A stretch of 64,000 bases of DNA from Actinomycetales bacterium (GTDB lineage: Bacteria > Actinomycetota > Actinomycetes > Actinomycetales > JAHECE01). Made by a program: the position numbers and the translations under genes. This document shows, piece after piece, positions 5 to 14,744 of the stretch. The notes beneath the pieces are model-generated. The model was not told the DNA's origin. It did not search any database and saw only the letters and a list, made by a program, of their open reading frames with translations. Within the stretch, counting starts at the first letter, position 1. Each line of letters opens with the position of its first letter. Location: the NCBI GenBank assembly GCA_029975645.1, contig JARKOU010000002.1, positions 2,987 through 66,986 on the forward strand. The letters run 5' to 3'.

Positions 5-1724
5 GAGCCTGTTGCAGATTCGCGCGTCCCGGACGGCCGCGGTCGGCTCGGCGGTGAGGATGGCTCATGGCCAAGGGTTACCGTCCGGTGCTGCGGGATC
101 AGCCGATGCTGCTGCCGGTGGATATGCGCGAGTGGCTGCCGTCGGATCATCTGGTGTGGTTCGTGCTGGAGGTCGTGGAGCAGCTCGACATCACGGACCT
201 GGAGCGGCAGCGGCGCCTGGGCGGTGCCGGCGCCGCGGGGTATGACCCGCGGATGCTGCTCGGGCTGCTGGTGTACGCGTACTGCCGGGGGGTGCGGTCC
301 TCGCGGCGGATCGAGGCGTTGTGCCACACCGATGTCGCGTTCCGGGTGCTGTGCGCTCAGGACGTCCCGGACCACGTCACGATCGCGAGGTTCCGGGCGC
401 AGTCGGTGGAGGTGTTCGCCGGGTTGTTCGCCCAGGTCCTGACGATCGCGGCGCGGGCGGGTCTGGCCCGGTTCGGGACGGTGGCGATCGATGGCACGAA
501 GATCGCGGCGAACGCCTCGATCGATGCCAACCGTGCCCAGGAGTGGCTGCAGCAGCAGGTCGCGGGCATGATCGAGGACGCCCGGCGCACCGACGCCGCG
601 GAGGACGCGGCTGGCACCCTGGACGGGGAGCGGGTCCCGGCCGGCCTGCGGGACGCGACGAGCCGGTCCGCGCGGATCCGGGCCGCCGCGGCCGAGGTGG
701 CGGAGCGGGGACGCCGTCAGGACGCCCGCGAGCAGGATCGTCTGGCCTCGGCGCGGGCCCGTCAGGAGCGGGCCGAGGCCGGGCAGGCGGTGGTCGGGCG
801 GATCCCGAACGGCCCGCACCGCCTGGCAGAGGCCCGGGCGCACCTGGCCCTGCAGGTCGCCGGTCAGCAGGCCAAGCTGGATCGTCGCGCCGCGATCATC
901 GCCTCGGGCCGCACCCCCGCGGGGCGGGTGCCGCGACCGGTCGAGGAGCACTCCTCGGTGATCCGCGCCCGGCGCGCGGTCCAGGCGGCCGAGCAGGCCG
1001 AGCAGGAGGCCGAACGAGCCGGGCCCGCCGGGCCCGGTCCCGCCGCGGGGCGGGTCGCGAACATCACCGACCCGGCCTCGCGGGTGATGCCGACCCGTCG
1101 CGGGTTCGTGCAGGGCTACAACGTCCAGGTCGCGGTCACCAGTGACCAGGTCATCGTCGCCCTGGACGTCGTGCAGGACACCAACGACCAGCACCACCTC
1201 GTGCCGATGATGGCCGCCGCCGGCGCCGCTGCCCGCCACCTGCACGCGGTCACCGGCCAGGACGAGCACCGCATCGGCGTCGTCCTGGCCGATGCCGGCT
1301 ACGCCAGCGACGCCAACCTCACCGCTCCCGGACCCGACCGCCTGATCGCCCTGGCCAAGTCCCGCGACCACGCCCACGCCGTCAGGCGAGACCCGGCCAA
1401 CGGCCCACCACCGCCGGGGTCCACACCCCGTCAGGCGATGGCCCACCGGCTACGGACCCCCGACGGGCACACCCTCTACAAACGCCGAGGCGCGACCGTC
1501 GAACCAGCGATCGGCAACCTCAAGAAGATCATCGACCGATTCGCCCGACGAGGCCTCGAACCCGTCCGATCCGAGATCCACCTCGCAGCCACCGCCTTCA
1601 ACATCACCAAGCTCCACCGCGCAGCAGCAGCCTGACCCGGGGCCACCCGGCGCCCCACCAGCCAGCGACCACCCCGGGCGACCGACCACGGGGCCTCCGG
1701 CCCGAGCCAATGCGCAACAGGCTC
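5..1724 (+). mobile_element. IS1182-family insertion sequence, inserted into an IS256-family transposase gene
   Basis: There are 11-bp terminal inverted repeats: GAGCCTGTTGC at 5-15 and its reverse complement GCAACAGGCTC at 1714-1724. Both ends are flanked by CGTA (1-4 and 1725-1728), consistent with a target-site duplication of at least 4 bp. The left flank is cut by the window edge. Confidence 0.75.
67..1635 (+). CDS. IS1182-family (IS5-like DDE) transposase
   Basis: 522-aa ORF. The N-terminus MAKGYRPVLRDQPMLLPVDMREWLPSDHLVWFVLEVVEQLD...YDPRMLLGLLVYAYCRGVRSSRRIE is typical of IS1182 transposases. The C-terminal part contains DAGYAS and a KRRGATVEPAIGNLK motif. Confidence 0.85.
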   Translation: MAKGYRPVLRDQPMLLPVDMREWLPSDHLVWFVLEVVEQLDITDLERQRRLGGAGAAGYDPRMLLGLLVYAYCRGVRSSRRIEALCHTDVAFRVLCAQDVPDHVTIARFRAQSVEVFAGLFAQVLTIAARAGLARFGTVAIDGTKIAANASIDANRAQEWLQQQVAGMIEDARRTDAAEDAAGTLDGERVPAGLRDATSRSARIRAAAAEVAERGRRQDAREQDRLASARARQERAEAGQAVVGRIPNGPHRLAEARAHLALQVAGQQAKLDRRAAIIASGRTPAGRVPRPVEEHSSVIRARRAVQAAEQAEQEAERAGPAGPGPAAGRVANITDPASRVMPTRRGFVQGYNVQVAVTSDQVIVALDVVQDTNDQHHLVPMMAAAGAAARHLHAVTGQDEHRIGVVLADAGYASDANLTAPGPDRLIALAKSRDHAHAVRRDPANGPPPPGSTPRQAMAHRLRTPDGHTLYKRRGATVEPAIGNLKKIIDRFARRGLEPVRSEIHLAATAFNITKLHRAAAA

Positions 1725-2742
1725 CGTAGTCGAGGAAGGGGATGAACTCCTCCCAGGCGGTGCGCCAGAGCTTGACGGCGGCCGGGTACTTGGAGCCCCA
1801 GCGTTCGGCGAACTCCTCGAACCGTTCGGCCGCGACGGTGTCCTTGACCGCGGTGTAGATCGGGCGCAGGTCCCGAGCGATGGCGTCCCAGTCCTGACGG
1901 GCGGCGTAGCGGAAGGTGTTGCGGATCAGGTGGACCACGCACGTCTGGACCTGGGTCTCCTTCCAGACCGTCGTGATCGCCTCGGGCAGGCCCTTGAGGC
2001 CGTCGCAGACCGCGATGCACACGTCGGCGACGCCGCGGTTCTTGATCTCGGTCAGGACGTTCAGCCAGTACTTCGCGCCCTCGCCGCCGTCGCCGGCCCA
2101 GATCCCCAGGATGTCCCGCTCACCGGCGGTCGTGACGCCGATGACGACGTAGAACGGCCGGTTAGTGACCTGACCGTCGCGGACCTTGACCATCAGAGCG
2201 TCGATGAAGATCACCGGGTACACGCCGTCCAACGGGCGGTGCTGCCACTCGCTCATCTCGGCCGTCACCTTCTCGGTGATCCGGCTGATCGTGTCCTTGC
2301 TCACCGAGGCGCTGTAGACCTCCATGAGGTGGGCGCAGATCTCCCCGGTGGTCAGACCCCGCGCGGTCAACGACAAGACGAGCTGGTCGACGCCGTCCAG
2401 GCGGCGCTGCCGCTTCTTGACGATCGCCGGCTCGAACGTCCCCTCACGATCCCGCGGCACCGCGACCTCGACCGGGCCGATCTCGGTCAGGACCGTCTTG
2501 ACCCGCGAGCCGTTGCGCTCATTCGTGCCCGCCTTGGCGTCCCGGTCACCGTGGTCGTACCTGAGGTGGTCGCTGAGCTCCTCCTCCAACGCGGTCTCCA
2601 GGACCTGCTTCGTCAAGCTCGTCAACAACCCTCCCGGGCCGACGAGGTCGACCCCCTGCTCCCGCGCCTGGTCCACCAACCGGTGCGCCAGCGCATGCCT
2701 CGCATCCTCCTCGAGCGTCATGGACTCGATCGTCTCGGTCAT
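1725..2742 (-). pseudogene. IS256-family transposase, 3'-truncated by the IS1182 insertion
   Basis: Translation from ATG 2742 (MTETIESMTLEED...) aligns by eye with the full-length IS256 transposase at 8376-9761, for example DREGTFEPAIVKK, YPVIFIDALMVKVRDG and VQTCVVHLIRN. Homology stops at ...WEEFIPFLDY, exactly at the IS1182 right inverted repeat; the intact copy continues FIPFLEFPPEVRR. Confidence 0.85.
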
Positions 2743-2951
2743 CTCGCCTGCTTCCCCGCCAGGCACCCACCCGGCGTGTCAGGCCAGACCCCCTACCCAC
2801 CGTTTGTCTGACAGTCCCGGGTCGGCGGCCCGACTGCCAACAGCGCGCGGTCATGCCGATGAGGGCGAACCCGACGGGCTGGGTCTGAACGAACAGGGCT
2901 CTCGTTGGAGCGACCGCGCGCCGAGGCCCGCCTCCGAAGTGTCGCCGATCT

Positions 2952-3827
2952 TCAGACGTATTTGGGCAAGCGGTCGTATCGCTGATAATGATCGCGGTCG
3001 TAGTGGTCGCTCAAGCTCGCGTTGTAGTGCTCAATGTCGAAGTAGTGCGGTTGCCCGTCTTCCCTAGTGATGCCGTTCTTGAGTAGTCCGAGTACGTGAT
3101 CAGGATTCGGTAGCGCTGCACCGTGCGGCGAGATGCAGTCCACATACCACGTGTAGCCGTGTCCATGCGTATCGTTGTGCCAAACGGCGCGGAGCCGCAT
3201 ATCGAAACCCAGCGCGGTCGCCGCGGCCTCGATCTCATTGATTCGTTGTTCGAGAGACTCGAGGTCGTGTCGCATGCCGCCGGCAGTCCGGGAGCTGAGA
3301 TGGAAGTAGTACCCGCGGTGTACCGCGACCCACCGGTTGGGGCTGCTCGTGGCGAAGATCCTCCACGCATCGGTGCTGGCAGGCATGAACCGCTGGGCGA
3401 TCGCCCAACCGCGCGGCGTCGACAGCATTCGTTCGAGCACCACGCCATCCCAGTAGTGGACGACAAGGTCCCCCCCGCGCCCGCGTTCAAGCCCCTCAAG
3501 CCGCTCAACGAGGGCGGATGTCGGGTGGGTCGTGCACACCAGTAGGAACCCCTGTGCACCGTGATGGTTCACCTGCTCGAGGACTCCGTTCGCCTCGTCC
3601 ACCCCGACAGCCCGGCCTGACGCTGAGAAGTCCTTGCAGGACACCAACCACTTCCGCGGCTTCGATCCGAGCAAGTCGCTGCCTCGCTCGACGAACGTCA
3701 GGTCTCGATCGCCGTCGGGCCCCTCGCCGCTCCATTGTGGATCGAATCCGAGTTGCAGCAGGAGTTCACGCACCAACGGCTCAAGCCTTCGGCCTGAGCC
3801 GCCGAGTTCCGTGAAGTCAAGCACCAT
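2952..3827 (-). CDS. Mrr-type (PD-(D/E)xK) restriction-endonuclease-domain protein with an unrecognised C-terminal domain (protein A of the divergent pair)
   Basis: The N-terminal half carries the Mrr_cat-like pattern LEPLVRELLLQLGF...GPDGDRDLTF...WLVSCKDF...GFLLVCTTHPTSALVERL...YWDGVVLERML. The last roughly 150 aa (His/Tyr/Asp-rich, ...HYFDIEHYNASLSDHYDRDHYQRYDRL) match nothing I recognise. The start is uncertain: ATG 3827 is chosen, with in-frame ATG 3860 and GTG 3902 as alternatives. The DNA is visibly AT-richer than its surroundings. Confidence 0.55.
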   Translation of the reverse strand: MVLDFTELGGSGRRLEPLVRELLLQLGFDPQWSGEGPDGDRDLTFVERGSDLLGSKPRKWLVSCKDFSASGRAVGVDEANGVLEQVNHHGAQGFLLVCTTHPTSALVERLEGLERGRGGDLVVHYWDGVVLERMLSTPRGWAIAQRFMPASTDAWRIFATSSPNRWVAVHRGYYFHLSSRTAGGMRHDLESLEQRINEIEAAATALGFDMRLRAVWHNDTHGHGYTWYVDCISPHGAALPNPDHVLGLLKNGITREDGQPHYFDIEHYNASLSDHYDRDHYQRYDRLPKYV

Positions 3828-4085
3828 CGAAGTATGCTCGACGCACAGCCCCCGCGGCATATCGAGTGCGAGGAGCGAGACCTTCACGACGTCCGAGCGC
3901 ACCGGGCGCCCGAGACCGCAGCAGCGGCGACACCCGGGAATGCCTGTGCTGCCGCACCTCGTGCCGAGCGTCTCGCGTGGAGGCGGCGACCGACTGCATC
4001 ACGGTCGGTCCTGCAGCACTGGACCCTAGGGGTGTGCAAGACCATCCTCCCTTCGTCGTGCAACGCTGCTGAAGGAGATCCGACC
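3828..4085. promoter_or_regulatory. Shared divergent control region of the nuclease-domain gene pair
   Basis: A 258-bp gap lies between divergent starts. SD GAAGGAG at 4071-4077 sits 8 nt before GTG 4086. A 7-bp inverted repeat is GACCGAC at 3988-3994 and GTCGGTC at 4004-4010. No promoter hexamers are confidently assignable. Confidence 0.3.
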
Positions 4086-5831
4086 GTGCCGACCATTGAC
4101 AGCGTCCCGTGGCTGCACCTGACCCAGCCGAAGTTCGACGAGATCGTCGAGGCCCTGCTGATCCACTACCACCAAGACCTGGCCGATGGCTCGCGCGCCG
4201 AGGCGCTCGACGGACGCGGCGGGGACGGCGGCCGGGACGTGGACGTGCACGTCGGGGAGAACTTCGACGTTCTCGATACCGTCTATCAGCTGAAGTACTT
4301 CCCCGAGGGGTTTTCAGGCGGTCATGCGAAATCTCGCAAGCCACAGATCAGACGTTCGTTCGAGGCCGCGATGAAGGACTCCCCTCGAGTCTGGGTGCTC
4401 GTGGTTCCACGCAACGTCGCCAAGTCCGAGCGCTCGTGGATTCGAGCCCTCGCCGGGAAGCGAAAGGTGAGGATCGAGATCTGGGGGCAGAGCAGGCTCA
4501 ACACCGAACTGGCCAAACGCCCGACGCTGCTGGCCTGGGCAACGCGGGACGCGCTTGTAGACACTCTCAAGTCGATTGGGCAGGCGCGAGCGGCCTTGAT
4601 CGGACCGACCGACCTGTCGGACCGGGTGCGCGATCTCCACGCGCTCGCAAACGCTCGAAGCCCGTTTTGGGGTACCGCCTTCACGGTGAACGCACGCGGC
4701 GGCGTCACGGAAGCGCTTTACGCAAAGGTGCCGGACGCGCACCTCAAGGAGCCGATCAGCTTCTCGTTTGCCATCACCCCCGACGTACTCGATGACGATG
4801 CGCGGACCGCCGCCGAGTTGTTCCGCGACTATGGAATCGGCACGGTACGCCTGCCGGGAGAGGCGCTTAGCGACTTCACAACGACAGGTCCAGAGTGGCT
4901 AGATATTGTCCCCGGTCCAGGCGACGTTATCCAGTTGGGGCCCGTACCGAGAAAGAGCGAGCCTGTCACGCTGTGCACTCTTGACGAGGACGGCATCACC
5001 AAGCGGGCCGTGCGTGGGCACGTCACCGCTTACGGACGTGGCCGAGTCGGGCGCGGGCTGTCGCTGGCGTGCACCGGTGGGCTCGAGGTGACGTTCCTCC
5101 TCAACGACGACGGCGCCGGCGTCAAGACAACCGTCGTTCAGCAGCTTGCGGGCGAGAACGCAACGGACGTGGTGGCATCCATCGAACTCGTGGAATCCTT
5201 GCCGCAAGCGGCTGCCGTGAAGGTGATGCGCGGCCCGACACCGTTACTAGGTCTCCGGCCACGGCCCGGGATGGACGTGTTGGAGACCCCGATTCCCGCG
5301 TACGAGCGGCAACTCGTTGACGACCTTGCTGTCATCGCCGCATTCACTCGAATTCCGTTCGACGTGCCGGAGGAGTTGACGGCCCACGAGCGCCAGGAGA
5401 TCCGCCGGCTGCGGTTGATTCTCGACGGACACGCGGTCCTCGAGCCCGCGTTTGGCCGACTGACCGCGGCACTGCGCCCGGACGTTCCGGAAGCCGAACT
5501 TGAAAGGTTCGCTGGCGTGTTTGCCGTGGCGGTCACGACTGCCGTTGCCTACGAGGTACTCGGACACGTCGTGCCGCTTAAGAACTCCGTCATCTACCAT
5601 CCACGAGCCTCCCTCAAGGCTCCCGGGTCGTGGAACGAGGTGGAGACAGCTAGAGAAGCCCGCAAGCCCGTCGACGTAGTTATCACCGGCGGTGACCACG
5701 GTCCCTTCTGGGTATACGTTCCCGAGCGTTCTGCGCCGGGCGAGCGGGCGGCCCTCACGCGGCTACAGATCCCCGGCTTTGATGAACCGCCATTGCCTAA
5801 CTTCCCGTCCGCGAGCGACCCCGCAGCATGA
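4086..5831 (+). CDS. Protein with an N-terminal Mrr-like (PD-(D/E)xK) nuclease module and a roughly 390-aa unrecognised C-terminal region (protein B of the divergent pair)
   Basis: GTG 4086 is preceded by a strong SD. The N-terminus reads FDEIVEALL...GRGGDGGRDVDV...VYQLKYF...RKPQIRRSFEAA...WVLVVPRN...IEIWGQSRL, i.e. a DGGxD...QxK nuclease core. No Walker A, HTH or methyltransferase motif is seen in the remainder. The 3834 start in the ORF track is probably an upstream over-extension. Confidence 0.55.
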   Translation: MPTIDSVPWLHLTQPKFDEIVEALLIHYHQDLADGSRAEALDGRGGDGGRDVDVHVGENFDVLDTVYQLKYFPEGFSGGHAKSRKPQIRRSFEAAMKDSPRVWVLVVPRNVAKSERSWIRALAGKRKVRIEIWGQSRLNTELAKRPTLLAWATRDALVDTLKSIGQARAALIGPTDLSDRVRDLHALANARSPFWGTAFTVNARGGVTEALYAKVPDAHLKEPISFSFAITPDVLDDDARTAAELFRDYGIGTVRLPGEALSDFTTTGPEWLDIVPGPGDVIQLGPVPRKSEPVTLCTLDEDGITKRAVRGHVTAYGRGRVGRGLSLACTGGLEVTFLLNDDGAGVKTTVVQQLAGENATDVVASIELVESLPQAAAVKVMRGPTPLLGLRPRPGMDVLETPIPAYERQLVDDLAVIAAFTRIPFDVPEELTAHERQEIRRLRLILDGHAVLEPAFGRLTAALRPDVPEAELERFAGVFAVAVTTAVAYEVLGHVVPLKNSVIYHPRASLKAPGSWNEVETAREARKPVDVVITGGDHGPFWVYVPERSAPGERAALTRLQIPGFDEPPLPNFPSASDPAA

Positions 5832-6109
5832 GGCTGCCGACTCACGAGCTTTCGCCCGGTGGACGCAGGCCTTGTGCAAGGAGGCAGCCCGTTCCTACGT
5901 TCCTCAGCCTGGTCTGATCAACTCGGCGCAGACCTCGAACTGTCGTCCTTGAAAGCCCGAGCACAGGCGTCCATCCGTACATCGGCGGAGCCGATCCTGC
6001 GTACGGAAACGGGACGATCCCCACTGCCGCCCGGTCATGCAGCCGCTGTCCGGTGCGGCATGGCGTTACGCGCTCACTGGGCCACCCTTCTCCCAGGCTT
6101 CGACAGTTC

Positions 6110-7594
6110 CTAGGGACACGGGTGCCTGGTTCTGGGCGTTGAGCAGCGCAAACGCTCGGTTGCGTGGCGGGGTCGTGTTACTAGGCGGTGCGGCGCGGGG
6201 CTGTGACCTGGGGCGATAGGTCGTGGTCCGAGCAGGATCGCGGGTTCGGGGATGTTCAGGGCGCGCAGGATGATGCGTTGCTCGGGGGTGGTCTCGGTGC
6301 GTTGGGTGACGCGCCCGGCAGGGCCGGTGAACTGTCCGGCGTGCATCCGGTCCATCGTGCGGGCGATCACCGGCCAGGGCAGGCTCGTGGCGTTCTCGGC
6401 GACCCGGATCAGCATCAGGGCGAGGTAGCACAAGGTGATGTGGGCGCGGATCCGCTGCTCGAGGCGGTGGTAGACGGGGCGGAGCTCGAGGACGCCCTTG
6501 AGGTCGCGGAACGAGCGTTCGGCCTCGAGGAGGCTCTTGTAGAGCTGGCGGCGTCGGCGGCGCCGATGTTTCGTCGGTGCAGGACAGCAGGTACTTCCCG
6601 TCGAGCTTCTCCTCCGCCTTGACGGCCTTGGTGTCGGTGGTCAGCGTGCCGTGGCGTCGGGTCAGGTAGCGGCGCAGCACCAGGTGCGCGAGCAGGACAC
6701 CTTCAGCGGCCAGGCGGGCGTCACCCGTCTTGCCGGTCAGGGCAGCGAGCTCGTGCTTGAGCCGCTCGAGGTGGCGGGTGCGGGTGGCGAGGTCGCGGGC
6801 GGCTTCGGAGAGGTTGCGGGCGATGATGAACCGCCGCCGGGACGGGCCGTCGCCGACCCAGACCTCCTTGACGTGCAGGCTGTCGGACACGACCCGGTAG
6901 CGGCCGGCCCGGGCCAGGGCGATCTGGTTGTCGGTGACGCCGCGCAGCTTCTCGGGGAACAGCACGTGCCCCCCGGCGCGCTGCGGGTGCACCCGGTTCT
7001 GTTCGGAGGCGAAGCCGCGGTCCCCGACCCACAGGACCCGGTGCAGCGAGGCCTCCCGCAGCTCGTCGTGGACCTGGCGGATGACGGTGGTGTCGGCGGC
7101 GTTGCCGGGCCACGACCAGACCCGCACCGGGATCCCCTCCCGTGTCACGGCGAGCCCGATCACGGTCTGCGGCCGGTCGGGGCGGTGGTCCTTGGACGCC
7201 CCGTAGCGGCGGAACTCGTCGTCGTCCTCGGTCTCGAAGTACGTGCTCGTGGTGTCGAACAGCAGCACGTCCACGTGCAGTTTGGCAGGTTCGCGACGGC
7301 GAAGAACACGCTCTCCTGGATCTTCGTGTCGGCATGCAGGAGGAAGTCCATCGCCCGGTAGAACACCTGCGGGTCCTCACCCAGGTCCGTCGCGCCGGGC
7401 AGGTGGACGTCCTGGCGGGCCCACTCCAGAGCGGCGAGCTTCGAGGTGGGGGCCAGGGCCCGGTTCGCGACCAGGGTGAACAGCACCCGCTGCGCCGAGC
7501 CGTCGAACGACAGCGACCTGTTCGGGTCGACGGCACGGCGCTGCTCGACGCCCTGGACCCGCTGGCGCCGTACGCCGCCCGGGTCGCCTCGCAC
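6110..7594 (-). pseudogene. IS1634-family (IS4-like DDE) transposase, disrupted by at least two frameshifts
   Basis: Three minus-strand frames carry consecutive parts of one transposase. The N-terminal part is in ORF 7160-7594 (SFDGSAQRVLFTLVANRALAPTSKLAALEW...FYRAMDFLL). The middle part is in ORF 6066-7274 (DVLLFDTTSTYFE...SKDHRPDRPQ...WVGDRGFAS...GKYLLSCTDE). The C-terminal part is in the frame of ORF 6110-6433 (QLYKSLLEAERSFRDLKGVLELRPVYHRLEQRIRAHITLCYLALMLIRV). The frame changes lie near 7285 and 6570. Confidence 0.7.
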
Positions 7595-8355: not shown

Positions 8356-9797
8356 TCTGTGTGTGTCGGTCCGGGTTAGTTGATGTGGGTGGTGAGTCGG
8401 TCGGGGAAGGCGATGAGCAGGGCGCCGAGGGCGCCGCGCCAGCCTTGGGTGACGGCGCCTTCGACGAGGCGTCCGGGGGCGGTGCGTTGGTTGGCGGATT
8501 TGCCGGCTTCTTTGGCGCGTTCGCGGGCTCTCTTGTCCTCGATATCGCGGATCGCGAGCCAGAGCAGTTTCACGACGGCCTCGTCCGAGGGGAAATGGCC
8601 CCGGTTCTTGATGATCTTCCGCAGCTGGTAGTTCAGTGATTCGATCGCGTTCGTGGTGTAGATGATCCTCCTGACCTCGGGCGGGAATTCCAGGAACGGG
8701 ATGAACCGTTCCCAGGCGTTCTCCCACGTCGCCACGGCGGCGGGGTACTTGCGGCCGAGGTCGCCGGCGGCGAAGTCCAGCAGCGCGGTCTCGGCGGCCT
8801 CCACGCTCGGGGCGGTGTAGATCGGCTTGAGCGCGGCGGCGACCTTCTTGCGGTCGGCGTAGGAGACGAACCGCATCGCAGCCCGGATCAGGTGCACCGT
8901 GCACGTTTGGACGATCGCCGCGGGCCAGGTCGCCTCGATCGCCTCGGGGAAGCCGCTGAGCCCGTCGCAGCACACGATCAGGGCGTCCTGGACGCCGCGG
9001 TTGCGCAGCTCGGCCAGGACGGTGGCCCAGAACTTCGCCCCCTCGCTGGTTTGCACCCAGATGCCCAGGACGTGCTTGATCCCGTCCAGGTCGATGCCCA
9101 CCGCGATGTGCGCGGCCTTGTTGCGCACCGCGGCGCCGTCCTTGACCTTGACCACGATCGCGTCGAGGTAGATCACCGGGTAGATCGGATCCAGCGGGCG
9201 GGACTGCCAGGCCTTGACCTCCTCCAGCACCGCGTCGGTGATCTTGGAGATCGTGTCCGGGGACAGGTCCGTGCCGATCGTGCGGGCCAGGTGGTGACGG
9301 ATGTCCCGCACGGTCATCCCACCCGCGTACAGGCTGATGATCATCTCGTCGAGGCCGCCGATCCGCCGACCACCCTTGGGCACCAGTCGCGGCTCGAACG
9401 TCCCGTCCCGGTCCCGGGGCACGTCCAGGCCGATGCTGCCGACCTCCGAATGCACCGTCTTCGGCGTGCTCCCGGTCCGCGAATTCGGCAGGTACCGCCC
9501 GATCGGGTCACCCTTGTCATACCCCAGGTGCGCGGACAGCTCCGCCGCCAGGCCACGCTCGAGAACCGCTTTGATCATTTCCGGGATGAAACCGCCGTCC
9601 CCGGTCAATTGCAGCGTCCCGTCATCGATCCGGGCCATCACCTCATCCAGCAAACCCGCACCGATCGCGTCCTGGATCGCCTCCCGCGCACTCGGCACCG
9701 GCGTCGGGCGACCGAACGCCGGATGCTCCGCAGCGAACGTCTCAACAGCAGTCATGGTCATCACTCCGTCAGAGTCGGGGACCCCCACCCACACAGA
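8356..9797 (-). mobile_element. IS256-family insertion sequence (minimal extent)
   Basis: There are imperfect terminal inverted repeats. TCTGTGTGTGTCGG starts at 8356. Its partner is CACACAGA at 9790-9797, which reads TCTGTGTGGGTGGG on the other strand. No clear target duplication was found, so the exact ends are uncertain. Confidence 0.45.
8376..9761 (-). CDS. IS256-family transposase (apparently intact)
   Basis: MTMTAVETF...DRDGTFEPRLVPKGGRR...YPVIYLDAIVVKVKDG...IVQTCTVHLIRAAMRF...FIPFLEFPPEVRRIIYTTNAIESLNYQLRKIIKNRGHFPSDEA is the full mutator-type IS256 signature. The start is ATG 9761 or ATG 9755. Confidence 0.9.
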   Translation of the reverse strand: MTMTAVETFAAEHPAFGRPTPVPSAREAIQDAIGAGLLDEVMARIDDGTLQLTGDGGFIPEMIKAVLERGLAAELSAHLGYDKGDPIGRYLPNSRTGSTPKTVHSEVGSIGLDVPRDRDGTFEPRLVPKGGRRIGGLDEMIISLYAGGMTVRDIRHHLARTIGTDLSPDTISKITDAVLEEVKAWQSRPLDPIYPVIYLDAIVVKVKDGAAVRNKAAHIAVGIDLDGIKHVLGIWVQTSEGAKFWATVLAELRNRGVQDALIVCCDGLSGFPEAIEATWPAAIVQTCTVHLIRAAMRFVSYADRKKVAAALKPIYTAPSVEAAETALLDFAAGDLGRKYPAAVATWENAWERFIPFLEFPPEVRRIIYTTNAIESLNYQLRKIIKNRGHFPSDEAVVKLLWLAIRDIEDKRARERAKEAGKSANQRTAPGRLVEGAVTQGWRGALGALLIAFPDRLTTHIN

Positions 9798-10409
9798 CCA
9801 TCAGACACGCCCGCGAGGGAGCCGGCGGCGCCGAGCGTCACAGCCAGGAGCGCAAACAGACCCTGCGCGAGGCTCTCCGACATCGTATTCCCCTTTACCC
9901 CTGTGCGTTCGCCGTCCACCCAAATCAATGTTGCTTCGAACCGGGCAACGTGGCCACGGAGGTGGCGACCTCGTCAGGCACCTGGTGTCGACCGGGCACA
10001 ACACCTAGCACGACGGCCTACGAAACCGCGACCAAGGCCACCCTAACCGGGCTTCGATCGCACCGCTGCACCGCCGCGGATTCGAGTCCGTGCGCTGTCA
10101 GGTCGCTAATGGCACGGCCCGATCTGCTAGGTGATTCTTGGCTTGGTCGATCCGTCGTACGCCACCGTCGAGGACCACGGCACCATCCGCCCGCGTTGGC
10201 TCGCCGGCCAACTCGGCGACACCATCATCAACCGGGGCCACCAGGCTTACCGCCGAACCGACGGCATCGCCGTCCGCCCCGTCGGCCCGGTCCTGCCCGC
10301 CCAGGCGCGCGAACCACAGCACACCCCACCCCTTGCCCTGCACCCCCATGTCCTGAATGCACGTATGCTACCTTCGATAGTTGCAGGTACACGACAGCGG
10401 GGAGGCGGC

Positions 10410-13400
10410 GTGCACGGCGGGGTGATCCTGTTCCGGGGGACGGGTGCCGCCGCGCGCCGGTACCTGGAGTCGGATCGCTCGCGGGCGGACGAGTACTACC
10501 TGGACGCCGGGGCCTCGCCGGCAGAGCTGTCCGTCGTCGACCATGCCGGGACGGTGGCCGAGGAGGCGTCGCTGTCGCCGGTGGAGTACGCGGGCTGGGT
10601 GGACTGGGTGAACCCGGTCACCGGGGAGTCGATGGGCAGGGCCCGGCAGGGCGGGGACGGGCGGCGGGGCTCGCCGCGGTTCGCGGAGATGGTGGTGAAC
10701 ACCCCGAAGTCGTTGTCGATCGCCGCCGCGCTGCACCCGGAGGTGTCCGAGGCGCTGGATGTCGCGCAGCGGGACGCCGTGGCTGAGATCCGGTCGTGGC
10801 TCGGGGCGCACTCGGTGACCCGGGTCGGTCCGCGCGGGCGGCAGGAGGTCGTGCCGGTGGAGCGGCTCGCGACGGTCGCGATCGTGCACCGGACCTCGCG
10901 GGCGGGTGACCCGCACCGGCACATCCACCTGCAGGTCGGCACCCGGGTGTGGGCCGCGGGGGCGTGGCGCGGGCTGGACACGGCGGCGCTGTTCCGTCAG
11001 CAGGGCGCGATCCGGGCGCTCGGCACCGCGGTGCTGGCGGCCCACCCCCGCCTCGCCGCGGTGCTGGACGCCCACGGGCTGACGCTCGACCCGGTCACCG
11101 GGGAGGTGGCCGAGCTGGTGCCGTTCAACGCGGTGCTGAGCAAGCGCGCCGAGCAGGTCGCGCGCAACCTCGCCGCGCTGGAGGCGCGGTGGGAGGCCGC
11201 CCACCCCGGCGTCGAGCCCGGCCGGACCGTCCGAGCCCGCTGGCAGGCCCAGGCGTGGGATCACGAGCGTCCGCACAAGAAGCCCTCCCACCTGGGCAGC
11301 GAGTCCGGCTGGTTGCGCGAGCTGGACGCGGCCGGGTACACCCCCGGCCTGCCCCGCGCCCCTCGTCCCTCCCCCGTGGCGCTGGAGGATCTGCGGGTGC
11401 AGGAGGTCGCGAACCGGGCGTTGGACCGGTGCAGCTCGGCGGCGTCGACGTGGACCGTGCACGACATCCAGGAGCACGTCACCCGCCTGCTCACCGAGGT
11501 AGGGGTCCGCGCCGAACGCCACGAGCTGCGCGAGGTCATCGCGATGACGACCCGACTCGCCGCGCAGGACTGCTTCTCGGTGCTGCCACCCGGGACGGCC
11601 CGCCCGGAGCACGTCGCGCACCTGACCACCCTGCGCGTCATCGACGTCGACACCCAGCTGCGGGACCTGCTGACCGCCCGCGCCGCCCAGCCAGCCGCGG
11701 GCGCGCCCGACGTCGACGCCTTGGCGCGTGACCGCGGTCTGGATGACGAGCAGGCGCAGGCCGCGGCGGCGGTCGCATCGGCCGACCCGCTGGTCGTCAT
11801 CGAGGGTGCCGCCGGTGCCGGCAAGACCACGATGCTCGGCGCGGCGATCCACGCCGCCGCGCTCCAGGGCCGCGCGACCAGGATCGTGACGCCGACGAAG
11901 AAGGCCGCCGACGTCGCCGCCCGCGAGCTCGGCGTCCCGGCCGACTCGGTGGCCAAGCTCGTGCACGAGCACGGGTGGCGGTGGAACACCGACGGCGTCT
12001 GGACCCGCCTGGGCGTCGGGGAGGCCGACCCCGACACCGGCCGCCCCTACACCGGCCCAGGCGCGGCCGCGCGCCTGCGCCGCGGGGAGCGGATCGTCGT
12101 GGACGAGGCCGGGATGCTCGACCAGGACACCGCCCTGGCCCTGCTGCGCCTGGCCGACGAGGCCGGCGCGAGCCTGGCCCTGATCGGAGACCGCGCCCAG
12201 CTGCCCTCCGTCGGTCGGGGCGGCGTCCTCGAGATCGCCGCCCAGGTCTGCCCGCGCACGTTCGACATGGCCACGGTCCACCGGTTCACCGACCCCGAGT
12301 ACGCCGACCTGAGCGTGCGGATGCGCCGCGGCGAGGACCCAACGGCGCTGTTCGACCGACTGCACGCCCTCGGCCTCGTCGTGCTGCACCCGAGCACCGA
12401 GGACGCGCACGCGGCCATCGCGCGCAGCGCAGGGGTGGGTGATGCGGTCACCGTCGCCACGAACGACGACGCCCGGGCCCTGAACACGACCATCCGCCGC
12501 CGGCGCGTCCAGCGGGGTGACGTCGACGACGCCCGCACCGCCCGCGGCAGCGACGCCCTGCCGATCGGCGCCGGCGACGTGATCCAGACCCGCCGCAACG
12601 CCGCCGACCTGCGCGTGGCGAACCGCCAGACCTGGACCGTCCAGCACGTCACCGACACCGGCGAGGTCTGGGCCCGCCAGGCGGGCCCCGGGCGAGCGGA
12701 CCGGGCCAGCGTGCGCCTGCCGGCCGCCTACGTCGCCGAGCACACCCACCTCGCCTACGCCGCGACCGCGTACGGCGTGCAGGGGGCGACCACGCCCGCC
12801 GCGCACACCCTCCTGAGCGACGCCCTGGACGCCTCCGGGCTGTACGTCGCCATGACCCGCGGACGGCACACCAACACCCTGCACGTCATCGCCGCGGACC
12901 TGGCCGACGCCCGCGAGCAGTTCACCACCGCCCTGCAGCGCGACCGCGCCGACCGCGGCCTGAGCGCCGCGACCCGCACCGCCACCCACGCCGTCGCCGG
13001 CCTGGTCGAGGACGGGCCCGTCGCGCTCGTCAACGCCGAACGCGCCCGACTCCTGCACCGGATCCAGACCGCCGAGCAGGAGGCCACCCGGTGCGAGGAC
13101 GCCCTCGGCGCGCTCGCCCGGCAGAACGAGCAGCACCGCACCGCCCGCGAGGAGCAGACCCAGACCGTCGCGGTCGCCGACGCCCACCTCGCCCGCGCGC
13201 GGGCCGTCGCCGCCGCCCCCCTGCTCGAGCGGGACAGCGCCGACGGCGCCGACTACCTCGCCATGCAGCAGCGGATGTGGCAGGCGAACCGCGCCCAGAC
13301 CGCCGTAGGTCGGTTCGGGCGGCGGGCCGCGGCTCGCACCGCGCGCGACGCCATCGGGGCCTACCGCACCACCGAGGAGACCGTGCGACGGCGCTGGGGC

Positions 13401-13847
13401 GACGTCCCGCTCACCACGGACCACCTCCCCCACTGGGCGCAGGCCGTCGCCGACCACCACGCCGACGCCGACCCGCGCGTCATCGCCGCGTCGCGGGCCG
13501 CCGACCACGCCCACCAGCAGCTGCGCGACCTCACCGCCCAGCACGCCGACGCCCGCGCCGCGCTGTGGCACAGCATCGGCGCCGGTCAACGACCCAGCGA
13601 CCTCCAGGTCAACGCCACCCAGTCCCGCGCCCGCGCCGACCACGCCCGCCGCGCCCTCGCCCAGATCGACGCCCTCCCCGTGACCGACGCCGCCCAGCTC
13701 ATCCGCGACCGACAGGCACAGGCCCCCACCGAGCGCATCGCCGTCGAGGCCGCGAACCGGGCAAGAGCGGCCGAACCCGCCCGCTGGCGCTCACCCGCCC
13801 CCGGTCACCAGCCCGACCCCGACCGCGGCATCGGTCCGAGCCTGTAG
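10410..13847 (+). CDS. MobF-family conjugative relaxase (TrwC/TraA-like) fused to a RecD/TraA-type helicase
   Basis: GTG 10410 follows SD GGGGAGG. The relaxase histidine motif is HRTSRAGDPHRHIHLQVG. Helicase motifs are Walker A VIEGAAGAGKTTMLG, Walker B IVVDEAGMLD, then LIGDRAQLPSVGRGG, ATVHRF and YAATAYGVQGAT...LYVAMTRGRHTNTLHV. The region 10131-10409 of the ORF track is probably non-coding leader. Confidence 0.85.
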   Translation: MHGGVILFRGTGAAARRYLESDRSRADEYYLDAGASPAELSVVDHAGTVAEEASLSPVEYAGWVDWVNPVTGESMGRARQGGDGRRGSPRFAEMVVNTPKSLSIAAALHPEVSEALDVAQRDAVAEIRSWLGAHSVTRVGPRGRQEVVPVERLATVAIVHRTSRAGDPHRHIHLQVGTRVWAAGAWRGLDTAALFRQQGAIRALGTAVLAAHPRLAAVLDAHGLTLDPVTGEVAELVPFNAVLSKRAEQVARNLAALEARWEAAHPGVEPGRTVRARWQAQAWDHERPHKKPSHLGSESGWLRELDAAGYTPGLPRAPRPSPVALEDLRVQEVANRALDRCSSAASTWTVHDIQEHVTRLLTEVGVRAERHELREVIAMTTRLAAQDCFSVLPPGTARPEHVAHLTTLRVIDVDTQLRDLLTARAAQPAAGAPDVDALARDRGLDDEQAQAAAAVASADPLVVIEGAAGAGKTTMLGAAIHAAALQGRATRIVTPTKKAADVAARELGVPADSVAKLVHEHGWRWNTDGVWTRLGVGEADPDTGRPYTGPGAAARLRRGERIVVDEAGMLDQDTALALLRLADEAGASLALIGDRAQLPSVGRGGVLEIAAQVCPRTFDMATVHRFTDPEYADLSVRMRRGEDPTALFDRLHALGLVVLHPSTEDAHAAIARSAGVGDAVTVATNDDARALNTTIRRRRVQRGDVDDARTARGSDALPIGAGDVIQTRRNAADLRVANRQTWTVQHVTDTGEVWARQAGPGRADRASVRLPAAYVAEHTHLAYAATAYGVQGATTPAAHTLLSDALDASGLYVAMTRGRHTNTLHVIAADLADAREQFTTALQRDRADRGLSAATRTATHAVAGLVEDGPVALVNAERARLLHRIQTAEQEATRCEDALGALARQNEQHRTAREEQTQTVAVADAHLARARAVAAAPLLERDSADGADYLAMQQRMWQANRAQTAVGRFGRRAAARTARDAIGAYRTTEETVRRRWGDVPLTTDHLPHWAQAVADHHADADPRVIAASRAADHAHQQLRDLTAQHADARAALWHSIGAGQRPSDLQVNATQSRARADHARRALAQIDALPVTDAAQLIRDRQAQAPTERIAVEAANRARAAEPARWRSPAPGHQPDPDRGIGPSL

Positions 13848-13873: not shown

Positions 13874-14127
13874 GTTGCCTTGGGGCGCCGGAGGCGGCGA
13901 AGCCCGTCGCGGTGGCCGGACGGGACCCGGGCCCGCCGTGACTCCTCGCCTGGCGGCTCGCCGACCTGCTCGTCGCCCAGTCGGTGACCAATGCCGGGAG
14001 CGCTCCGTCAGGACCTCGGCGTCTCGCCGCCGGCCGCTTCGAGCATCCGGGTCGGCGGGGGCCCCACCACCCAGGCTGCGGAGCGTCCCTTTCCCCGCAA
14101 AAAGAGAGACCGAATCGAGCCACTCTT

Positions 14128-14151
14128 GTATCGCGTATCGCTACGCGATAC
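14128..14151. promoter_or_regulatory. Perfect 10-4-10 palindrome, candidate HigA operator overlapping the higBA promoter
   Basis: GTATCGCGTA at 14128-14137, spacer TCGC, then TACGCGATAC at 14142-14151. It ends 10 nt before the higB GTG at 14162. It is flanked by a TTGTA -35-like element and a TACGGT -10-like element. Confidence 0.5.
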
Positions 14152-14161
14152 GGTTTGTCGC

Positions 14162-14440
14162 GTGATCGTCGGCTTTCGGCACAAGGGTCTGGAGCAGCTG
14201 TACCGCGACGGGTCGAAGCGGGGCGTCCAGGCCGCCCACGTGCCGAAGCTGCTGCGCATCCTGTCCGCGCTCGACGTAGCGCAGGCGCCGGAAGACCTGG
14301 CGATCCCGTCGTTTCGGACGCACCCGCTGAAGGGCGACCTCACGGGGCTCTGGTCGATCTGGGTGAACGGCAACTGGCGAGTGACGTTCAGGTTCGTCGA
14401 GAACGACGTCGAGCTCGTCGACTATCAGGACTACCACTGA
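14162..14440 (+). CDS. higB: HigB-type toxin (RelE/ParE superfamily, plasmid maintenance killer)
   Basis: VIVGFRHKGLEQLYRDGSKRGVQAAHVPKLLRILSALDVA...HPLKGDLTGLWSIWVNGNWRVTFRFVENDVELVDYQDYH matches the HigB/killer-protein pattern (HxLkGdl.g.wsi.v.gnwRi.F). The toxin-first gene order is typical of higBA. Confidence 0.8.
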   Translation: MIVGFRHKGLEQLYRDGSKRGVQAAHVPKLLRILSALDVAQAPEDLAIPSFRTHPLKGDLTGLWSIWVNGNWRVTFRFVENDVELVDYQDYH

Positions 14441-14462
14441 GTGCGAGGTGAGGATCGTGGCG

Positions 14463-14744
14463 ATGAAGAACCCGGTGCACCCGGGCGAGATCCTGCGGGA
14501 AGACGTGCTGGCCGACCTCGGTCTGGGCGTCGGTGAGACCGCGTCGCGGCTTGGGATCTCGCGCGTGGCCCTGAGCAGGGTCTTGCACGGTCACGCCCGG
14601 ATCAGCCCGAACCTCGCGGTGCGGCTCGAGGCAGCCGGCGTGGGTACCGCCCGCGCGTGGCTGGCGATGCAGGCGGCCTACGATCTGGCCACGGAGCGGG
14701 CATCCGGCGCACCCACGGTTCGCCGCCTCAGCGACGTCGCCTGA
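14463..14744 (+). CDS. higA: HigA-type antitoxin (XRE-family HTH)
   Basis: MKNPVHPGEILREDVLADLGLGVGETASRLGISRVALSRVLHGHARISPNLAVRLEAA is the canonical HigA N-terminus and HTH. An AGGA SD lies 8 nt upstream of ATG 14463. Confidence 0.85.
   Translation: MKNPVHPGEILREDVLADLGLGVGETASRLGISRVALSRVLHGHARISPNLAVRLEAAGVGTARAWLAMQAAYDLATERASGAPTVRRLSDVA

Follow-up and report, generated by a model that had tools for sequence, protein, structure and literature searches.

Two back-to-back Mrr-type nuclease-fusion genes in an Actinomycetales genome: probably separate single-gene cassettes

We analysed a stretch of 64,000 nucleotides from an Actinomycetales bacterium (GenBank assembly GCA_029975645.1, contig JARKOU010000002.1, positions 2,987 to 66,986), called the window below, and in it a pair of divergently transcribed genes, A and B. 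An original prediction, made from the letters of the DNA, had taken the pair for a candidate undescribed defence system built of two proteins, each with an N-terminal nuclease module of the Mrr type. The nuclease modules were confirmed, and the reading of A and B as a two-gene system is refuted by the distribution of their relatives. The features of the pair, in window coordinates, are listed here.

2952 to 3827, minus strand: gene A, 291 residues, Mrr_cat nuclease plus Hfx_cass1-like domain; delimited by its open reading frame (ORF) and 41 aligned relatives.
3423 to 3827, minus strand: predicted nuclease domain of A, about residues 1-135, with E21, D38, D42, E47 and S63-C64-K65.
2955 to 3422, minus strand: C-terminal domain of A, about residues 136-291, homologous by profile and model to Hfx_cass1 (Protein Data Bank, PDB, entry 3FUY).
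3828 to 4085, no strand: spacer of 258 bp, of which 3860-4013 is found in neither gene's closest relatives; it marks the junction between the two cassettes.
4086 to 5831, plus strand: gene B, 581 residues, divergent Mrr-like nuclease plus a tail of about 390 residues; delimited by its ORF and 34 aligned relatives.
4086 to 4535, plus strand: predicted nuclease domain of B, about residues 1-150, with E22, D47, D51 and Q68-L69-K70.
4641 to 5828, plus strand: C-terminal region of B, residues about 186-581, roughly three sub-domains, acidic and faster-evolving.

The two genes and their spacer

In the six-frame ORF list the two frames extend from 2952 to 3902 (minus strand) and from 3834 to 5831 (plus strand). 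The starts were set by alignment with relatives, at ATG 3827 for A, whose relatives begin MLDFxEL, and at GTG 4086 for B, whose relatives begin M-P-x-I. With these starts the spacer runs from 3828 to 4085, as expected for the divergent pair with a shared region of 258 bp that had been described at first. The peptide strings then quoted from A and B are all found in the translations, and the DNA string cited as an example of low G+C content was located, beginning at 2958. The G+C content is 0.624 in A and 0.648 in B, as against 0.71 in the window, and the G+C content at third codon positions (GC3) is 0.76 in both genes, as against 0.79-0.95 in the window's other likely genes; the segment is indeed lower in G+C than its flanks.

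Purifying selection acts on the two genes, and on each of their domains. The ratios of non-synonymous to synonymous substitution rates (dN/dS) measured against relatives are 0.10-0.13 for A and 0.16-0.17 for B, and the whole range, 0.10-0.17, covers both domains of each gene.

A search of the spacer returned no sigma-70-like promoter, intrinsic terminator or Rfam match, and only short, weak repeats were seen. A weak inverted repeat of 24 nucleotides (3885-3908 and 5853-5876, 71% complementary) roughly flanks the B cassette, taken as the homology block 4014-5877, and is probably due to chance in G+C-rich DNA.

Nuclease domains and C-terminal regions

Residues 11-106 of A match the Pfam family Mrr_cat (PF04471) with E=1.4e-7 and 32.1 bits, the gathering cut-off being 21. 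W32, G34, G36, D38, D42, E47, R58, W60, C64 and K65 are invariant in the 41 relatives, and E21 is nearly so. The AlphaFold model of the A monomer has a predicted local distance difference test (pLDDT) score of 91.1 and a predicted template modelling (pTM) score of 0.87, and when its nuclease part was compared with solved structures by Foldseek, AspBHI (4oc8) was matched with probability 1.00 and EcoT38I with 0.94. As judged by profile and model, the N-terminus of A is an Mrr-type PD-(D/E)xK nuclease domain with predicted activity. The Ser at position 63, where Mrr has Gln, had been read as the mark of a catalytically altered partner of B. This did not hold up. Ser is the majority state of A's own family, with Gln in some members, and is therefore a trait of the family that does not mark A as degenerate; moreover, D38, D42, E47 and K65 are invariant.

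Full-length B gave no match in Pfam, NCBIfam or PHROGs. Its AlphaFold model (pLDDT 86.4), when compared with solved structures, matched EcoT38I and the Avs4 nuclease through its N-terminus with Foldseek probability 1.00 and MspJI with 0.99; models of phage proteins labelled 'restriction endonuclease' were matched as well. The nuclease profiles of the A and B families align motif for motif over 131 columns (hhalign, E=1.2e-3). G45, G46, D47, G49, D51 and K70 are invariant in the 34 relatives of B, E22 and Q68 nearly so, and the motif fits the Mrr signature DGGxD...QxK. Only two of these relatives match Mrr_cat at E<=0.05, and one relative in the B family (P0244) clears the Pfam threshold, with a score of 21.9 against 21. 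Because of the fold match, the profile-profile alignment and the invariant D...QxK residues, we assign the N-terminus of B to a divergent Mrr-type PD-(D/E)xK nuclease domain, again with predicted activity. The N-terminal module proposed for both proteins is thus borne out, by Pfam for A and by fold, profile and residues for B, and the residues of the nuclease core are conserved in the alignments of the 41 A and 34 B relatives. The catalytic positions typical of the fold, a Glu in helix 1, an Asp ahead of strand 2 and (E/Q)xK in strand 3, are occupied in both families, residue 63 of A being the one departure.

The C-terminal region of A could be placed. When PDB sequences were searched with the A-family profile (hmmsearch), 3fuy_A was matched with E=9.7e-9 at profile positions 208-288, and in Foldseek the model of A aligned with the whole 3FUY chain (E=1.9e-7, template modelling score 0.69 on the target, 159 columns). 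By sequence profile and model, the tail of A belongs to the Hfx_cass1 fold family. Hfx_cass1 (3FUY) is an integron-cassette orphan from a salt-marsh metagenome with which residues 136-291 or so of A share both fold and sequence profile; it stands alone, with 150-180 residues, whereas its counterpart in A follows a nuclease in one polypeptide. It was described as a flat homotrimer with a polar crevice that is lined by acidic loop residues and has features recalling nucleotide-cofactor sites, and with acidic clusters on its surface (PMC3548836); the trimer is known from the Hfx_cass1 crystal only. Homologues were not known in 2013 (PMC3548836), and the orphan fold now has some, the A family among them.

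D274, D279, H280 and Y284 of A are nearly invariant and lie in an SDxxDxDHY segment aligned to 3FUY. Residues 274-284 (about 2976-3008 of the window, minus strand), with the pattern SDHxDxDHYxxY, align with the stretch of Hfx_cass1 that immediately precedes its C-terminus. Such an Asp/His-rich motif would suit metal or nucleotide binding, and the Asp/His/Tyr segment may correspond to the acidic loop that lines the proposed binding crevice of Hfx_cass1. Most of the proteins recovered in a profile search with the tail of A are fragments of the nuclease-fused architecture that lack their N-terminal part; one apparent stand-alone protein (P0106) was recovered as well. A-type nucleases also occur with other tails: one protein from Corallococcus (P0065, 470 residues) carries about 170 extra residues at its C-terminus, and another (P0089, 421 residues) ends in a weak pP_pnuc_2-like region, that is, one resembling a pPIWI-associated nuclease (E=7e-4). 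These two proteins hint at modular swapping of tails behind one nuclease head.

The tail of B (about residues 186-581) was modelled confidently by AlphaFold as roughly three sub-domains, beta-rich or alpha/beta. It has no match in Pfam (B and its 34 relatives), in PHROGs or in PDB sequence profiles (full-length and tail-only searches), and Foldseek found no fold match in the PDB or BFVD. Within the B family the mean pairwise identity is 20-30% in the tail and 46% in the nuclease domain. Tails are acidic to neutral, with isoelectric points (pI) of 4.9-6.8. As stated in the original prediction, the C-terminal regions of both proteins are devoid of nucleoside triphosphatase (NTPase), helix-turn-helix (HTH), methyltransferase, helicase and protease families in Pfam and NCBIfam; among the 34 relatives of B the search for NTPases gave a single marginal match, to iSTAND (E=0.039).

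An exhaustive profile search with the B tail alone returned 1569 representatives at E<=1e-3, 310 of them at E<=1e-30. The best 150 of these 1569 matches all have the same architecture of about 580 residues, and it is kept in 143 further representatives. The family spans 136 species of the GTDB (one genome per species), almost all of them Actinomycetota, and forms no fewer than 310 clusters when grouped at 50% identity; its members are annotated 'hypothetical protein', and relatives were found on 17 actinobacterial plasmids. One member (P0229, 707 residues) has about 150 extra residues at its N-terminus, with the string 'DSCFSG', and a degenerate nuclease motif. A caspase-like nature of this extension, noticed by eye, was dropped, as Pfam finds nothing there.

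Distribution and genomic neighbourhoods

If A and B were one system, with a common regulatory region and with B partnered by an altered A, their being adjacent and divergent across a spacer of 258 bp, with a similarly low G+C content, would speak for it, as would the recurrence of the pair in five contigs. The relatives give a different picture. We retrieved 80 genomic loci of B, with flanks of at most 10 kb, and 94 loci of A from metagenomic and viral contigs. The A-family profile had no match in the 80 B loci, and no member of the B family was present in the 94 A loci. The same holds for the closest relatives, those of B (84% and 56% identity) having no A nearby and those of A (82%, 80% and 77% identity) no B. 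The N-terminal profiles of both families revealed no second Mrr-like gene beside B in any of the B loci. A weak B-profile match beside one A relative (locus L167) was rejected, since it is a PDC-S73 protein (Mrr_cat plus nSTAND3) and not a relative of B.

The only other occurrences of A together with B are contigs 100% identical to the window over up to 3.9 kb and derived from one run series; the five contigs therefore come from the same strain. What is more, homology to relatives breaks within the spacer: in blastn comparisons the homology to the A relative at locus L004 extends over 2952-3859 and that to the B relative at locus L002 over 4014-5877, which leaves 154 bp common to neither. The lack of co-occurrence and this break of homology indicate that A and B arrived separately. 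The proposal that they form one defence system was not borne out on any of these counts.

ORF clustering within 4-5 kb of the 80 B and 94 A loci yielded no conserved partner gene. Near B only serine recombinases recur (11 loci), and near A the clusters are all due to near-identical contigs that belong to a single organism. As neither family has a conserved neighbour, each would appear to act alone.

The immediate neighbours of B, 150 in all, show an enrichment of mobile-element recombinases, with 8 resolvases and 5 phage integrases plus transposases; single genes for restriction-modification of type I and of type IIG, for GajA and for JetA are also among them. Those of A, 122 in all, include IetS, PDC-S73 and mad2 (two each), Avs2, PDC-S01, AbiGii and AbiEii, as well as a type I methylase and phage integrases. 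The share of bacterial genes with a predicted anti-phage role has been put at about 1.5% (PMC13434031). Set against this figure, the neighbourhood of A looks enriched in defence genes (about 11 of 122, or about 9%), and that of B only mildly so (about 4 of 150, or about 3%), these being small counts from crude gene calls with no matched background. PADLOC matches to PD-T4-6 and MADS near B were discounted, as the two Pkinase proteins concerned are probably generic Ser/Thr kinases. Full-length relatives of A also lie in five prophage-like IMG/VR contigs.

Some individual loci are of interest. At 3268-6906 of locus L002 the 84%-identical relative of B is followed by a Cap15_CD_rec-like gene of 83 residues and then by an AAA_15/AAA_21 ATPase gene of 637 residues, a neighbourhood that resembles a defence island and differs from that in the window. 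Directly next to the relatives of A with 77% identity (L005, 6390-11655; L006, 6370-10013) stand genes for a tyrosine integrase and for a relaxase-type helicase, and L005 has NERD and NB-ARC genes at a greater distance. Cassettes of the A type may therefore be carried by integrative conjugative elements of a similar kind. At L167 (1453-3804) and L124 (11404-13752), relatives of A have as direct neighbours proteins of the PADLOC type PDC-S73 (Mrr_cat with nSTAND3, E as low as 2e-161), so that different Mrr-nuclease immune genes adjoin in defence islands.

The other features of the window near the pair are the following.

67 to 1635, plus strand: transposase like that of the insertion sequence (IS) IS1182; Pfam DUF772/DDE_Tnp_1_6 on 67-1632.
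1450 to 2766, minus strand: IS256-type transposase, left flank of the pair; Pfam Transposase_mut, E=5.6e-102, the match stopping at profile position 324 of 379.
6066 to 7274, minus strand: degraded DDE (IS4-type) transposase remnant, right flank of the pair; Pfam DDE_Tnp_1 on residues 2-111 only.
8376 to 9794: second IS256-type transposase, from Pfam.
10131 to 13847: TrwC/AAA_30 relaxase, from Pfam.
13988 to 14741: HigB and an HTH protein, from Pfam.

The IS1182-like element overlaps the 3' end of the IS256-type gene (1450-2766) and truncates it; 67-2766 looks like one IS inserted into another. Beyond the HigB and HTH genes there are ordinary metabolic genes. The island context claimed for the pair is correct as to the IS elements, the relaxase and the toxin-antitoxin module. 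It is not correct as to an integrase next to the pair, the sole integrase-like sequence found being at about 18.7-19.6 kb, some 13 kb away. No methylase adjoins the pair, as had been said, and no NTPase is adjacent to it either.

Interpretation and comparison with known systems

We consider it likely that A and B are two unrelated, independently mobile single-gene nuclease-fusion cassettes, each acting alone and probably defence-related, which stand side by side by accretion. The cassettes would have been added back-to-back in an IS-riddled stretch adjoining genes of a conjugative element (TrwC relaxase, HigBA), and their divergent layout and common spacer would have no functional meaning. Each would be self-sufficient, with no need of a methylase, an NTPase or a partner gene. 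For both proteins we infer a mechanism of trigger-licensed cleavage, in which the C-terminal module would fix the oligomeric state and/or recognise a trigger, which might be a protein of foreign origin, a small ligand or a feature of DNA, and this recognition would license DNA cleavage by the N-terminal nuclease. The result might be type IV-like restriction, or a defence of the abortive-infection type that protects the host or the carrier mobile element.

In B, the combination of a conserved effector with a fast-evolving acidic tail favours recognition of a foreign protein over the reading of DNA. In A, the homology to Hfx_cass1 suggests a trimer-forming domain with a ligand pocket, and control by assembly or by ligand. 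More specific proposals, which we put forward tentatively, are that B may be an undescribed NTPase-free immune receptor-nuclease of a single protein, widespread in Actinomycetota, whose structurally novel tail directly senses a phage component, and that the Hfx_cass1 fold of A may be a trimerising, ligand-binding regulator of the nuclease, which would be the first functional context for this orphan fold.

Several points weigh against this interpretation as two defence-related cassettes. The nuclease domain of B on its own falls short of the Pfam Mrr_cat threshold, and Ser63 of A departs from the canonical Gln/Glu. The defence genes counted near the relatives are few and were compared with a general figure. 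The putative roles of the tails, as sensor or oligomeriser, are read from architecture and conservation pattern, and the acidity of the tails speaks against direct reading of DNA.

The best surviving alternative is that A and B are ordinary solitary type IV enzymes, their tails reading modified bases and the Mrr domain cutting nearby. Both are solitary Mrr-type nucleases with no methylase, relatives of A bear the public name 'restriction endonuclease', and in their nuclease domains A and B are similar to AspBHI and MspJI, which are modification-dependent. On the other hand, no known fold or family of DNA readers, be it SRA, winged-helix, EVE/YTH or another, was detected in the tails, which are acidic to neutral (pI as given above), the surface of Hfx_cass1 having acidic clusters as well; the fast evolution of the B tail is also unlike that of typical base-reading domains. 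We regard a mechanism dependent on modified DNA as a live alternative to the sensor model, though an unlikely one.

We find it distinctly improbable that A and B serve in the maintenance or competition of mobile elements, as addiction-type toxic genes, as anti-plasmid or entry-exclusion genes or as recombination or repair nucleases. Their setting among IS elements, resolvases, integrases and relaxases, the presence of B on plasmids and the lack of a steady association with any one of the known defence systems would fit such a role. However, no conserved antitoxin-like or immunity partner was detected, defence genes are over-represented near A relative to the roughly 1.5% expected (PMC13434031), and many B loci are chromosomal and outside recognisable elements.

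That the pair is decaying, non-functional cargo in an IS graveyard is very improbable: nearby transposase genes are truncated or degraded and the composition of the pair is atypical for the window, but the two ORFs are unbroken and as long as is usual in their families, the catalytic residues are all present and the dN/dS values are low (0.10-0.17). A two-component system has next to no probability left, given the absence of co-occurrence, the identity of the five contigs, the break in the spacer and the invariant catalytic residues of A.

With the proposed new two-gene defence system not there, a false lead is removed. Solitary genes that join a nuclease to an unknown domain are common in variable regions, and these points about A and B will not surprise specialists. 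What remains are two uncharacterised families of single-gene Mrr-type nuclease fusions, a class increasingly shown to be anti-phage. Family B, sizeable and with an orphan tail, would be a sensible choice for defence screens with Streptomyces, Mycobacterium or Micrococcales as hosts. The A family ties an orphan structure of 2009, Hfx_cass1, to a nuclease effector and so offers a testable hint at the role of the fold.

Among described systems, no PADLOC 2.0 model gave a full-length match to A or B, only partial, domain-level ones with E=5.8e-5 to 0.014. Those to the nuclease core cover 65-100 residues and pair A with PDC-S02 (E=5.8e-5) and B with PDC-M58A (E=4.7e-4) and with LmuA of Lamassu (E=0.012). 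Likeness to these three is limited to the nuclease domain, and A and B belong to none of them; PDC-S02, unlike A, has its nuclease at the C-terminus (profile positions 206-290 of 346). The claim that the pair fits no named system can be upheld in this sense. Its other half, that an effector-first order is unprecedented, was overstated, because Avs proteins carry N-terminal Mrr-type nucleases and an anti-phage action of single-gene Mrr_cat fusions has been validated by experiment.

A conserved nuclease at the front and a large, variable region behind it are indeed what B shares with Avs4 (8dgf) and PDC-S73 (Mrr_cat plus nSTAND3), which are effector-first too. Avs proteins, however, have about 1500 residues, and B, with 581, has no STAND or other P-loop NTPase between nuclease and tail. 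A reading of A and B as receptors of the STAND/Avs type was ruled out, since an NTPase family was found in neither. Effectors of the CBASS or CRISPR type (Cap4, NucC, Can2) were also considered and set aside, there being no conserved neighbour and no cyclase among the 25 commonest neighbour families of each scan.

With Mrr and the type IV enzymes (AspBHI, 4oc8; MspJI, 4f0p; EcoT38I, 7edb) A and B share the PD-(D/E)xK core with its DGGxD...(Q/S)xK motif, and all of them are solitary, with neither a cognate methylase nor an NTPase. Classical Mrr has an N-terminal winged helix and C-terminal catalysis, whereas in A and B the nuclease is N-terminal. Pfam and NCBIfam revealed no Mrr_N, SRA-like reader or other DNA-binding family in either protein, and their acidic C-terminal modules, unrelated to known DNA-binding domains, are unlike the readers of Mrr and type IV enzymes.

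Closest in general design are Epona (Mrr_cat plus a holin-like transmembrane domain) and Divona (a DUF4365 nuclease of the Mrr subfamily plus crr6), anti-phage systems of a single gene each from chromosomal integrons of Vibrio (10.1101/2024.07.02.601686). Like A and B, they consist of one small gene that joins an Mrr-type nuclease to an unrelated second domain in a mobile cassette. The partner domains differ, the likeness being judged by description, and a defence role is shown for Epona and Divona only. The integron-cassette homologue of A's tail recalls the integron setting of these two systems.

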